From Eledone cirrhosa (lineage: Eukaryota), in NCBI GenBank assembly GCA_964016885.1, contig CAXHJY010000066.1:1-38196 (forward strand): a stretch of 38,196 bases of DNA, read 5' to 3'. This document shows, piece by piece, positions 2,365 to 34,104 of this stretch. Numbering within the stretch: the stretch's first letter is position 1; each line of letters starts with the position of its first letter. Both the position numbers and the translations under genes were made by a program. The notes under the pieces were generated by a model. The model worked only from the letters and a program-made list of their open reading frames with translations. It was not told the origin of the DNA and made no database searches.

Positions 2365-2590
2365 AAAGAAAAAGAGATGAAATCGAAAATGCAACTGGAG
2401 TCTTATTTTTTTTAAATATATATATTTATTTGGTTCCTTTACCGGTTTCGTAGTTCTTCTACTTTTCAAAAGGTGAGTTGAGATGGAGGTTCTGTGGTTT
2501 TTCTCACATCTGGTTGGTCTCTGAATGTTACTTGTTTTATATGGAAAAAGTGGCTCGAAATGCCAGGTTTTTCGAGAATAATTTGATTGT
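2365..2590 (-). mobile_element. PLE-type terminal (pLTR) fragment, family B
   Basis: Unique island between TA tracts carrying a minimal HHR about 70 nt from its 3' end. No ORF recognised, so the PLE assignment is inferred from the HHR type and context. Confidence 0.6.
2436..2473 (-). ncRNA. Minimal type I hammerhead ribozyme, U3-A8 core variant
   Basis: Minus strand: cctt TTGAAAA gtag-aagaa-ctac GAAA ccgg TA aagg. Stem I cctt/aagg, stem II gtag/ctac, palindromic helix III ACCGGT. Confidence 0.75.
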
Positions 2591-3250
2591 ATATATATAT
2601 ATATATATATATATTTATATATATATATATATATATATATATATATATATATATATATATATATATATATATATATATATATATATATATATTATATATA
2701 TATATATATTATATATATAAATTATATATATATAAATATATTATATATATATTTATATTATATATATATATTATATATATATATATATATTATATATATA
2801 TATATTATATATATATAAATATATTATATATATATATTATATATATATATATATTATATATATATAAATATATTATATATATATATATATTATATCTCTA
2901 TATATATTATATATATATATAACTATATTATATATATATATTATTTATATATATTATATATATATATATATTATATATATATATTATGTATATATATATA
3001 TATATATTATATATATATATATTATATATATATATATTATATATATATATAATATATATATATATATATATTATATATATATATATTATATAGATATATA
3101 TATATTATATACATATATATTATATATATATATTATATATATATATTATATAGATATATATTATATATATATATATATATATTATATATATATATATTAT
3201 ATATATAAATTTTATATATATTTATTATATATATATATATATTATATAGT
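2591..3250. repeat. Interrupted (TA)n tract
   Basis: Direct reading. Confidence 0.98.
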
Positions 3251-3357
3251 AATAATAATAAAATTGAAGACTAAAATCCAAAGAGGGCTCGATAAGGAAA
3301 ATATATATCAAATATATAAAAACCGTAGAGCAAATATTTATTAAAATAACAGATTAA

Positions 3358-3408
3358 AGTTTAAGCAAAGAATCGCTGCTTTCACCCTTAACGGGATCTT
3401 CTGAAACT
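3358..3408 (-). ncRNA. Type I hammerhead-like motif with CAGAAGA core (U4A)
   Basis: Minus: agttt CAGAAGA t-ccc-gttaa-ggg-t GAA agca-gcgattctt-tgct T aaact. All three stems pair; identical copy at 33548-33598. Confidence 0.6.
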
Positions 3409-4331
3409 AACAAAGTCAATCTGTAAACGCAGAACTGGATATTTCAAAAAACGTTGCAACCGGAGGAAGACAGGAAGACGATACTTTGGTTCGTGGTGAC
3501 GTTCGCTGGCAAAGAACGGGAAAAAACAAATAATACGTCATTAATAGAAGCGGTGAAAAACAATTACGCGCAAAGACAGAACCACGTTCATGGTATAAAA
3601 GAGGTCGTAGACTAATGTTCTCTTAGGTGGTGCATAGAGACGTTCTCTGGCAATGAACGAAAAAACGAAGATAATAAGTCATATGTGGAGCGTGGAGAAC
3701 AATAGCACGCGAAGACAAAACCACGTAAATGGTATAGCAGAAATCGTAGACTAAAATACTAACTAGGAGACCGAATGAATCTCCGCTACAGAGTTAAGAA
3801 CAAAGTAAATAAATACAATACAGAAGTAATAAAAACAAATAAATACATACACGCCAGCAGATACGTACATACACAAGCATCCGCAAAACCTTACCATAGG
3901 TATACGAAGCCACGCACATATAAATATGTGTGTGTGTGTATGCTTGTGTACATATAAATAAATAATTATATAAACGTATATAAGTAAATAAATACGTATA
4001 TAACAAGCGCACGCACATACCTACAGATAAATACACGAATGTTCGGAGACGTAAGTCAACTAAAACAAGAAGTACACATATACACACACCCACCATACGT
4101 ACGGACCTCTATACTCACGCAGACGCAAAACTCCCGTATACACATAGCCAAACCCTAAATACCAGAATATGTAAAAATTATACACCATAACAGTCAAATA
4201 TACGTACGAGAAGGTATACATACCTTCACAAAACATACGGGTAATATATACTTACCTATGCAAATAAGTAAAGGAATAAACATATACTTAGCTCCCGCAT
4301 CAAGACGTAAAATATCCACGTATAGATCGTG

Positions 4332-5267
4332 CTATCCGTTGGGGTATATCGTGGGGCTGTAATACAGGAAAGTTTTGTGCAATTTATGTTTACAAGCCGA
4401 AATTGCCTCGGATTTTTTGTTTAAGATGCGGTCTGTGGCGTAGAGTATTTCCAGGGCCTCAGCGGCACAGAGGTCACATGGTCTTTTATTTCCGTAATAC
4501 GATCTAGCCCTAGCTAGGATCTCCCAGTGTAACTTATATTGGGTGTGGTTGTCTTTTAGACTCCAGATATAAGCTGAAAGTGACGTCATATTCCTTCTTA
4601 GAGGGTAACGAAAAGAATGGGTATGCATGTAAAGGCGCTGCTTGAAACTATTGGCGGTTAACCCTATGTAGGCCCTACGGGACGTGGGTGTTACAACCTT
4701 ACATTTGTAGACAATGTTACTAGATAGGCATTTCCCGGATAGGGGGCAATCAGCCCGATTCCTACAATTACAGTTAGTACTAACTACAGGGTTGCACGTG
4801 TTCCTACGGCTAGGTAGTTTAGCTAAATTTGAAGCTGTGATGTTATGTGCAAGGTTAGGAGTCGTAGAGTAAGAAATTTTAATAGTATTTCTATTAAAAA
4901 TTTTACTATATTTATGTGTAGGGGGAAAATGCTTCGTAATAAGGGAAAGGAAGATCTTAGCTAATGGTGTGGCCACCTCCATATTATATGGTGGGTTAAA
5001 CCAACAAATGCGACGGGATCTATTTCTTCTAGGTCTATTTTCGTACTCTGTATAAGCTACTTTATCGACAAATCCACTTCGAGCAAGAGCTTCATTGTAA
5101 TAAGTGGAATGGTCGTTGAAAATGCGCTCGTTGGTGGAAAGACAGGAAAGCCTCAACGAAACGTTTTTTACCAGGTTCTTGGTTATGCTGGCAGGATGGT
5201 TGGAATGCTTACTTATGTAATTAAGCGTATCATTCGGCTTTCTATACGGGTAATACAACCCATTCAA
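4332..5267 (-). pseudogene. C-terminal part of PLE protein (RT thumb, Cys-rich linker, GIY-YIG endonuclease), Naiad-like
   Basis: Motifs (LDVTLNL)..PYRKP, WFNPPY, KHFP..H..KIFNRNTIKISYS, CNC..CPLSGKC, IVY..YIGLT..FKQR..H, CDLC..E, LNKKSE..CKH. The frame continues to about 5290, where the element is truncated. Confidence 0.9.
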
Positions 5268-5347
5268 TAAATTGAGGGTAACGTCGAGGGAATTCTAAAG
5301 CTGGCCAGTCGAATATATATATATATAATATATATATATATATATAA

Positions 5348-5574
5348 TATATATATATATATATATATAATAGGAACCAGTAAGACCCCGACAGCTGAGC
5401 TCAAGCCGTTTCGACGGCTAATTCTGGACTAATTCAATCCAGAATTAGCCGTCGAAACGGCTTGAGCTCAGCTGTCGGGGTCTTACTGGTTCCTATTACC
5501 CACTCTACTACCTCAAGTATTGAGTACTTTGGTGCGTTATGGTCCACCTGGTTCCTTACCACATTTCCTTCGTT
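5348..5574 (+). mobile_element. Palindromic PLE-type terminal fragment, family C, containing the 3' half of an HHR
   Basis: ~60-bp inverted arms around 5420 plus a ~76-nt tail. ...gaattagccgtc GAAA cggct-tgagctc-agctg TC ggggt gives stem II 3' side, stem III and a GUC site. Confidence 0.75.
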
Positions 5575-5730
5575 ATATATATAATATATATATATATATA
5601 TAATATATATATATATAATATATATATATATATATAATATATATATATATATATATATATAATATATATATAATATATATATATATATATAATATATATA
5701 TTATATATATATATATATTATATATATATT

Positions 5731-5894
5731 CTGGACTAATTCTGGACTAATTCAGTCCAGAATTAGCCGTCGAAACGGCTTGAGCTCAGCTGTCGGGGTC
5801 TTACTGGTTCCTATTACCCACTCTACTACCTCAAGTATTGAGTACTTTGGTGCGTTATGGTCCACCTGGTTCCTTACCACATTTCCTTCGTTAT
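5731..5894 (+). mobile_element. Tandem duplicate of the family C long arm, duplicated together with its downstream TA tract
   Basis: 5745-5894 is near-identical to 5425-5574. The interruption pattern of TA tract 5575-5728 is repeated at 5895-6048. Confidence 0.85.
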
Positions 5895-32239: not shown

Positions 32240-32310
32240 TGTCTTATCTGATGAAAACACAAATATTATTGCATGATGATGTTTGTTTTTGAAATGCGCA
32301 TAATAAAATA
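32240..32310 (+). ncRNA. Minimal type I HHR, family D
   Basis: tgtcttat CTGATGA ... GAAA tgcgca TA ataaaata. Confidence 0.82.
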
Positions 32311-32435
32311 CATGGAACTCCTTTAACCATCTTTTGATCTTATATTATGCATACTCCAGTCCTACAAACTGTAGAGTGCTTCTTATCCGATATCTGCATT
32401 GCTTTATTGTACTACAATAAAACTCACCTCCTACA

Positions 32436-33030
32436 TATATTATATATATATATATTATATATATATATATTATATATATATATATATTATATATATATAT
32501 ATATTATATATATATATTATATATATATATATTATATATATATATATATATTATATATATATATATTATATATATATATATATATATTATATATATATAT
32601 ATATATATTATATATATATATATATTATATATATAATCTATATTATATATATATATATTATATATATATATATTATATATATTATATATATATATATATA
32701 TATATATATATATATTATATATATATATATATATATATATATTATATATATATATATATATATTATATATATATATATATATATTATATATATATATATA
32801 TTATATATATAATCTATATTATATATATATATATTATATATATATATATTATATATATTATATATATATATATATATATATATTATATATATATATATAT
32901 ATATATTATATATATATATATATATATTATATATATATATATTATATATATATATATATATATATATATATATATATATATATATATATATATATATATA
33001 TATATATATATATATATATATATATATATA
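32436..33030. repeat. Interrupted (TA)n tract
   Basis: Direct reading. Confidence 0.98.
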
Positions 33031-33073
33031 TACAATATTAAATAAATGGAAACTATATTTATAAAACCATATT

Positions 33074-33139
33074 TATTTCATTATATATATTTCAGGGATA
33101 TCATATTAACAATATGCTATGCCTTCCTCAGACAAAATA
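33074..33139 (-). ncRNA. Minimal type I HHR, family E
   Basis: Mirror of 33284-33349. Confidence 0.72.
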
Positions 33140-33283
33140 CAATATAAACAGTTTTATAGATAAATAGATTCGACATACCGTAACAACATCGACTTGTATT
33201 TGAAAAGGTTGATTTGATTTCAAATACAAGTCGATGTTGTTACGGTATGTCGAATCTATTTATCTATAAAACTGTTTATATTG

Positions 33284-33349
33284 TATTTTGTCTGAGGAAG
33301 GCATAGCATATTGTTAATATGATATCCCTGAAATATATATAATGAAATA
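33284..33349 (+). ncRNA. Minimal type I HHR, family E (CTGAGGA core)
   Basis: tattttgt CTGAGGA ... GAAA tatata TA atgaaata. The core change relative to the 29148 copy is at the variable position 7. Confidence 0.75.
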
Positions 33350-33523
33350 AATATGGTTTTATAAATATAGTTTCCATTTATTTAATATTGTAAATATACT
33401 CCAAATATTTGTCGAGTGCTTTTATATCAGTTATAAATATTTACTAGTTGTAACCCAACAATTTAAATATAACTTTCCATATATATATATATATATATAT
33501 ATATATATATATATATTATATAT

Positions 33524-34104
33524 ATATTTATTAAAATAACAGATTAAAGTTTAAGCAAAGAATCGCTGCTTTCACCCTTAACGGGATCTTCTGAAACTAA
33601 CAAAGTCAATCTGTAAGTCAATCTGTAAACGCAGAACTGGATATTTCAAAAAACGTTGCAACCGGAGGAAGACAGGAAGACGATACTTTGGTTCATGGTG
33701 ACGTTCGCTGGCAAAGAACGGGAAAAAACGAATAATACGTCATCAATAGGAGCGGTGAAAAACAATTACGTGCAAGGACAGAACCACGTTTATGGTATAA
33801 AAGAGGTCGTAGACTAATGTTCTCTAAGTGGTGCATAGAGACGTTCTCTGGCAATGAACGAAAAAACGAAGATAATAAGTCATATGTGGAGCGTGGAGAA
33901 CAATAGCGTGCAAAGACAAAACCACGTAAATGGTATAGCAGAAGTCGTAGACTAAAATTCTAACTAGGAGACCGAATGAATCTCCGCTACAGAGTTAAGA
34001 ACAAAGTAAATAAATACAATACAGAAGTAATAGGAACAAATAAATACATACACGCAAACAGATACGTACATACACAAGCATACGCAAAACCTTACCATAG
34101 GTAT
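33524..34104 (-). mobile_element. Family A PLE 3' UTR fragment without tail
   Basis: High identity to 3334-3903. Confidence 0.92.
33548..33598 (-). ncRNA. Hammerhead-like motif with CAGAAGA core, family A
   Basis: Identical to 3358-3408. Confidence 0.6.

Follow-up and report, generated by a model that had tools for sequence, protein, structure and literature searches.

Minimal type I hammerhead ribozymes with a small palindromic helix III are known from the end repeats (pLTRs) of metazoan Penelope-like elements (PLEs), where they occur in opposite-strand pairs 100–700 bp apart and as many solo copies from truncated elements, include variants with a U3-A8 core or an extra nucleotide after A9, and show low activity (Cervera & De la Pena 2014, PMC4209133). 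PLE insertions carry an inverted 5′-truncated copy and a tail (PMC8557442; PMC3846280), the canonical EN+ unit being an inverted pLTR followed by pLTR-ORF-pLTR and a tail (PMC3846280; PMC11167929). Hydra-clade PLEs prefer (TA)n targets and include Hydra-1_Obim of Octopus bimaculoides, which has a hammerhead (PMC8557442). Hammerhead cleavage is dispensable for insertion in vitro (PMC11167929). Metazoan non-LTR retrozymes, linked to PLE pLTRs, also have type I hammerheads in non-coding repeats (PMC7229834; bioRxiv 10.64898/2026.07.22.740005), in head-to-tail arrays (repeats of 150–450 bp; PMC7229834) that yield circles.

The window (the whole 38,196-nt stretch of Eledone cirrhosa DNA analysed) contains 15 hammerhead motifs, which are real but ordinary end-repeat ribozymes of PLEs. 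A reading of the cluster's density as a system in itself is not supported: the 15 motifs reduce to nine PLE-end insertions and are not 15 independent units. In all probability they are passive cargo of these insertions beside (TA)n, each of which would have produced between one and three copies of an end repeat carrying a ribozyme, with most copies predicted to be silenced by an inverted twin. Publications already describe minimal pLTR hammerheads and their opposite-strand pairing, cores with U3:A8, the targeting of (TA)n, and a hammerhead-bearing Hydra PLE in Octopus. Two small oddities are left: the CAGAAGA core (U4A) of one family (B) and tails of 79–87 nt in families B, D, F and G, compared with the 30–40 nt reported for PLEs.

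Each position given in the earlier note has a hammerhead-shaped motif whose left end lies within a few bases, and its number of six hammerhead families (A–F) is correct. Seven motifs lie on the forward strand and eight on the reverse. That all 15 have a complete core and three stems is true in part: measured against CUGANGA/GAAA/NUH, 12/15 are canonical, while A (UUGAAAA, the published U3:A8 pair) and both B copies deviate, and stem I has 4–8 bp throughout, while stem II has an irregular base in C and in both motifs of one F insertion (F1a, F1b). The motifs are of the minimal type I found in PLE pLTRs, and several have, as proposed for four families, a self-complementary helix III whose palindrome suits dimer folding; AGGACT is only 4/6 self-complementary, with a predicted dimer duplex of −1.7 kcal/mol compared with −8.3 (A), −10.5 (D) and −3.2 (F). 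Helix III of C and B can be folded as a monomer.

An initial strict descriptor found 6/15 motifs and a relaxed one 12/15, nine of them with the strict CUGANGA core; C, F1a and F1b were missed because of their irregular stem II base. In 200 shuffles of the window (dinucleotides preserved within 500-nt blocks) the relaxed descriptor gave a mean of 0.07 matches (maximum 1) and the strict core 0.005, the latter being the fairer figure, as the relaxed core list was drawn up after the motifs were known. Rfam cmscan of the window to E = 10 returned 28 matches, all TA-rich or hairpin chance matches, with no hammerhead family among them. With a model trained on Hydra-type motifs from outside the window, 15/15 were recovered, weakly (8.5–18.2 bits), among 32 matches at E ≤ 10; the remaining 17 were partial or chance matches.

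The layout of element E is exactly that of the canonical EN+ unit. An inverted 5′-truncated copy on the reverse strand (17142..19045; C-terminal half of the ORF plus pLTR, hammerhead 17302–17348) adjoins a direct copy on the forward strand (19044..23450), consisting of a 5′ pLTR (hammerhead 19104–19150), the ORF and a 3′ pLTR (hammerhead 23185–23231). Within 17142–23450, the inverted 1.9-kb copy is identical at 1894/1905 positions and the direct pLTRs at 324/326 nt. The ORF of the direct copy (19290–22977) encodes an RT (motifs DKSG and YVDD; RVT_1 under cut-off) with a GIY-YIG endonuclease at the C terminus (22.1 and 22.8 bits, cut-off 22.6), as in EN+ PLEs, and has an Asn-rich stretch, like rotifer Penelopes. 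The tail of the direct copy extends into the ORF start, as in the canonical unit, although it is 56–59 nt long, the ORF is interrupted and any target-site duplication is unreadable owing to (TA)n. A CX4CxxC linker between RT and EN (residue 395 of the 21412–22974 frame) fits the CX2-5CxxC of Neptune/Nematis, a type present in 98/120 relatives among the matches listed, and by this linker sequence E is classed as a Neptune/Nematis-type PLE. The ORF has 142 relatives, the best named one from Octopus vulgaris (66% identity); in viral contigs, 0/3 candidate relatives of E were confirmed, which leaves E with no outside covariation.

Family B is represented by two insertions on the reverse strand. 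B1 (3249..5287) comprises the C-terminal portion of an ORF of the Hydra PLE clade (4332 to about 5287), a 3′ region of ~930 nt that contains an internal duplication, a hammerhead (3357–3409) and an 85-nt tail (3249–3333), while B2 (33524..34117) is an ORF-less 5′-truncated copy with a hammerhead (33547–33599) and no tail. In agreement with the published definition of the Hydra clade (PMC8557442, Files S1 and S2), the B ORF has a CxCX5C linker and CxxC and CxH flanking E/N, and the element is inserted into (TA)n. The N-terminal part, with the region of RWK and DKT, is missing within the window; among the 120 longer relatives listed, DKT is present in 104, RW[K/R] in 79 and CxCX5C in 107. The B ORF and hammerhead are likely linked, despite being 929 nt apart compared with about 120–320 nt in relatives. 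The B1 hammerhead has U.U at 10.1/11.1 and U17, as is often the case in 3′ hammerheads of the Hydra clade (U17 in 10/26 rows, by eye), whereas all 26 of those rows have CUGANGA. In both B copies position 4, where the type I core has U, is A; this U4A change was found in 0/21 related motifs and 0/26 published Hydra rows. The CAGAAGA core pattern was found at nine loci in viral contigs, none with flanking stems (by eye). No natural U4A hammerhead core was found in the literature searched; excerpts of PMC3088659 mention only a U4C viroid variant, and those of PMC3376415 have nothing on U4.

Families D and F form palindromes, align as sister families as far as the tail boundary and have a long stem II region (31–37 nt). 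In D1 (9007..9410; centre near 9251), hammerheads at 9133–9200(−) and 9305–9371(+) are accompanied by an 86-nt tail on the left side (9007–9092). D2 (30045..32434; centre near 31200) has 1.08-kb arms, hammerheads at 30090–30156(−) and 32242–32308(+) and an 86-nt tail on the right side (32349–32434). F1 (28799..29262; centre 29070/29071; hammerheads 28930–28991(−) and 29150–29211(+)) has a left tail of about 87 nt, and F2 (33025..33478; centre near 33211; hammerheads 33076–33137(−) and 33286–33347(+)) a right tail of about 86 nt. Arms are 0–4 substitutions apart (F2 identical, 173/173), and the palindrome centre lies 60 vs 1048 nt upstream of the core in the two D insertions and 86 vs 81 nt in the two F insertions. 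A further family (G), absent from the earlier note's list, has a palindrome plus 79-nt tail at 5373..5572, which by eye likely retains a hammerhead's 3′ half only (GAAAC, helix III, GUC), a second copy truncated at a similar point (5731..5890, forward strand) and a third at 10809..10988 (reverse strand). D, F and G all show inverted arm, tail and (TA)n.

Insertion A (2368..2589, reverse strand) is a solo end between (TA)n runs, likely a 5′-truncated PLE end; its hammerhead (2435–2474) has helix III ACCGGU and a predicted cut after 2440 (GUA), and no ORF is attached. Insertion C (6201..6570, forward strand) is a solo PLE-like end, presumably of PLE origin, with a hammerhead (6244–6321; core CUGAUGA) that has a 6-bp helix III, a 6-bp stem I, an irregular stem II and a predicted cut after 6315 (AUA). 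Within the window ORFs are attached to E and B only, and tblastn of the window revealed no remnant of an ORF in A, C, D, F or G, the PLE origin of which therefore rests on architecture. Two weak tblastn matches (E 0.009 and 0.024) were rejected as remnants, one having stops and the other lying on the wrong strand. (TA)n adjoins every one of the nine insertions, and runs of at least 12 nt lie within 40 nt on both sides in 12/12 delimited pieces, a test that is circular for A and C, whose boundaries were partly set by TA runs.

Small palindromic helix III, the U3-A8 core (A), the extra nucleotide after A9 (E), opposite-strand pairs and solo copies are shared with the published pLTR hammerheads (PMC4209133), from which the window differs in the monomer-competent helix III of B and C, the long stem II region of D and F and U4A. 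By analogy with published PLE biology, the element endonuclease would prefer AT-rich or (TA)n targets, and reverse transcription would begin downstream of the hammerhead, at either of two internal sites that include or omit the tail, usually stopping early. Since copies of the same family have their palindrome centres in different places, the inverted arm would be made anew at each insertion, by 5′-end fold-back or template switching. The predicted cut site is spanned intact in every copy, suggesting that the template RNA was uncut (or re-ligated) and that cleavage would not have been needed for these insertions.

The short palindromes D1, F1 and F2 might instead be an independent non-autonomous unit, MITE-like or retrozyme-like, with a hammerhead per arm, as their near-perfect 300–400 nt without an ORF and the similar break point of G copies could suggest. 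This is very unlikely: centres vary in sequence as well as place within a family, the side that bears the tail switches between left and right from copy to copy, D also occurs with 1.08-kb arms, and copies in the window are inverted or solo rather than head to tail as in retrozymes (self-BLAST of the window and TRF of 27900–34200 gave no hammerhead-bearing head-to-tail 150–450-bp repeats). The least probable reading attributes palindromes and duplicates to faulty assembly of fold-back chimeric reads, which would have doubled the motif count. Arms are 99–100% identical and such repeats are known to trouble assemblies (PMC8557442), but the end point of one-sided tails agrees to the base among independent copies, a few differences are present in most arms and the layout is that of published PLE insertions.

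Repeated PLE insertion, the preferred explanation, also bears on what read-through RNA would do. The earlier note proposed that such RNA is either cut repeatedly or folded into long dsRNA hairpins; the inverted copies are predicted to form the hairpins, while serial cutting is not expected. A head-to-head inverted copy together with a one-sided tail is found in five insertions, which between them hold 11 motifs; because all inverted pairs point outward, the antisense copy of each of these would be transcribed first. For six motifs in short palindromes the predicted probability of an unpaired core is ≤0.02, and where the pairing is long-range, the duplex of sense and antisense (−86 to −101 kcal/mol) far exceeds in stability the fold of each motif by itself (−10 to −12), an equilibrium prediction; with arms 1.8–5.8 kb apart, a motif could fold first. 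Of the remaining four motifs, A lacks a partner for dimerisation within the window, U4A is present in both B copies and stem II of C is irregular. Most motifs would thus be trapped by their own inverted copy, with cores buried in a long hairpin, rather than cutting RNA. A selected RNA-processing locus, in which read-through RNA is cut at many sites or circularised between same-strand motifs, could draw on the motifs on both strands, on same-family same-strand pairs 4.1 kb apart (E and F) and on monomer folding in C and B. It is highly improbable given the preceding antisense copies, the poor cleavage of published minimal hammerheads (PMC4209133), within-family changes, which are either neutral or disruptive to pairing (D2 stem I), and the composition of the window, ~89% of which (hand-set boundaries) is mobile-element or microsatellite DNA.

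The locus is a dense example of a known PLE architecture and carries little biological weight. For ribozyme censuses it advises caution, since inverted and duplicated ends inflate the motif count 1.7-fold here and the majority of copies would, by prediction, be inert. It also offers two inexpensive test cases for the role of PLE hammerheads, a family that multiplied with U4A in its core and insertions in which the cut site is without exception spanned uncut. A doubtful joint reading would make B an amplifying Hydra-clade element with a fixed U4A core still cleaving, alone or with the element's protein, and would place B, D, F and G in one octopod PLE group whose reverse-transcription starts are spaced by ~85 nt, double the tail length reported so far; if true, the active U4A hammerhead would be a natural core variant not found in print.

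Covariation across family copies, which the earlier note had named as a check, is absent within every family. Between D and F, two-sided changes affect 4/13 pairs, essentially one divergence event. In a 12-row seed alignment of outside relatives they affect 10/13 pairs, a figure that leans high, the rows having been preselected by a pairing filter. Motifs of this kind also occur in metagenomic Hydra-type loci, with 15 matches in 14/38 loci and 21 matches by model.

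All 15 positions that the earlier note had listed as hammerheads mark a hammerhead-shaped motif, and nine insertions of Penelope-like element (PLE) sequence (A, B1, B2, C, D1, D2, E, F1 and F2) account for all of them; the motifs are real, of a kind already known, and their cause is ordinary. A descriptor (core, stem I of at least 4, stem II of at least 3, helix III paired or palindromic) matches 12/15 motifs, or 9/15 under the strict core, where mean chance expectation is 0.07 and 0.005, respectively (200 block-wise dinucleotide shuffles). In the standard hammerhead position numbering, the core is CUGANGA in 12/15 motifs, family A has U3:A8 and both family B copies have U4A; the base of stem II is irregular in C and in both arms of F1 (F1a, F1b). 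An Rfam scan of the window returned 28 matches, none to hammerhead families. A covariance model trained on 12 motifs from Hydra-type loci in metagenomes (the outside loci) picks up all 15, weakly (8.5–18.2 bits, among 32 matches in all).

A and C are solo ends. The B1 hammerhead lies downstream of an ORF fragment carrying Hydra-clade motifs, and B2 is a family B copy without the ORF (551/582 alignment columns identical). D1, D2, F1 and F2 are outward-pointing palindromes of two motifs each, with a one-sided tail (extra element sequence beyond the end repeat, downstream of the hammerhead) of 86–87 nt; palindrome centres vary among these copies, and D and F are sisters by alignment. Element E (17142–23450; three motifs) consists of an inverted 5′-truncated copy, then pLTR-ORF-pLTR (pLTR, PLE end repeat) and a tail. 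Its ORF matches RT and GIY-YIG, with a CX4CxxC linker, and is interrupted by a stop at 20241 and frame changes. Within the N-terminal part, an Asn/Thr/His-rich low-complexity stretch (about 20020–20330) contains this stop and resembles the N-rich inserts of rotifer Penelopes described in the available text of PMC3846280. Family G, a seventh end family lacking a complete hammerhead, has three copies (5373–5572, 5731–5890 and 10809–10988), with a palindrome and 79-nt tail in (TA)n; all that they contain of a hammerhead is a probable 3′ half, and breakpoints in 3/3 copies lie within about 10 nt of one another, at the would-be stem II. Tails (3249–3333, 9007–9092, about 28797–28883, 32349–32434, about 33393–33478, 5494–5572 and about 23392–23450) measure 56–59 nt in E and 79–87 nt in the other four families (B, D, F, G), in every case more than the 30–40 nt reported for PLEs in excerpts of PMC8557442 and PMC11167929.

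Each architectural feature here is already covered by published PLE biology, as far as the available text goes: microsatellite and AT-rich targeting, 5′ truncation and a neighbouring inverted copy (PMC8557442, PMC3846280), an optional tail that reflects RT beginning at either of two internal sites (PMC8557442, PMC3846280, PMC11167929) and, in vitro, insertion independent of hammerhead cleavage (PMC11167929). Every copy spans the predicted cut site, and insertion-private changes (a broken stem I pair in D2, N7 in F2) occur in both arms; from these two observations we infer that the second arm arose by copying during insertion and that its template was uncut or re-ligated, although the both-arm private changes may be the product of later gene conversion.

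Read-through RNA had also been expected to be cut repeatedly or to fold into long hairpins. Equilibrium folding predictions favour the hairpins and give no support to repeated cutting: 11/15 motifs have an antisense copy upstream that would be transcribed first. For the 6 motifs of the three short palindromes, folded together with the 250 nt upstream, the core is predicted to be unpaired with a probability of at most 0.02, and predicted duplexes in D2 and E reach −86 to −101 kcal/mol, versus −10 to −12 when the motif folds by itself; one of the E motifs E2/E3 could stay free of duplex. A needs a dimer partner and the window has none. The B hammerhead fold lies 0.8 kcal/mol above the best fold, with a predicted stem I probability of 0.06 (30-nt context), and C, its fold 2 kcal/mol above the best, would be the strongest candidate for cis-cleavage. 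Covariation across copies, by which the earlier note proposed to judge the motifs, is seen between D and F (4/13 pairs changed on both sides, helix III palindrome included) and in no case within families; the D/F changes represent one divergence event, and that pair count was attained in 115/500 shuffles. Outside relatives have two-sided changes in 10/13 pairs, among rows preselected for pairing.

Family B fits the Hydra hammerhead pattern (U·U at 10.1/11.1, U17), yet position 4 is A in both copies. U4A occurs in 0/21 model matches in the 38 outside Hydra-type loci and, unlike B, in 0/26 rows of published Hydra hammerheads from the accessible part of PMC8557442; nor was such a core found in the searched literature, which was covered as text without figures. 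As there are two copies only, B is more likely a decayed ribozyme carried along than an active variant. In one outside locus (L007) two different hammerheads lie ~200 nt apart, 3′ of a Hydra-type ORF (1068–1111, 1265–1308), and another (L025) has a hammerhead with a U3:A8 core (2097–2144).

By hand-set boundaries, PLE-derived and LINE-derived sequence each make up about 36% of the window and (TA)n about 18% (union 89%). (TA)n lies within 40 nt on both sides of 12/12 delimited pieces (the nine insertions and three G copies), partly circularly for A and C. A 24-bp perfect, inward-facing inverted pair (5288–5311/6177–6200), at which no target duplication was seen, encloses (TA)n and two G copies between B1 and C. 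A 77-nt island inside (TA)n (659–735) is possibly another broken motif, as it holds a minus-strand CUGAGGA (673) that the microsatellite cuts short, and 28071–28381 is a tandem pair of 153-nt copies without hammerhead core. Among named relatives, the E protein matches one from Octopus vulgaris best (66%), so the host is probably an octopod. In O. vulgaris, PLEs are given as 6.83% of the genome (190 families) in the available text of PMC13282606; if the host genome is similar, PLE density in the window would be ~5x average. LINE-type ORFs (AP endonuclease and RT) lie at 23893–26967(−), 11442–15676(+), 34362–37509(−), 15908–16693(+) and 7398–8083(−), the first an uninterrupted frame of 1024 aa with a PHD-like match after RT. 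Bits of ~20 nt of one repeat end are found within (TA)n in both orientations (1906–1925, 2053–2074, 2149–2172 and 34201 onward), and the longer copy at 34201 presumably resembles a common octopus repeat.
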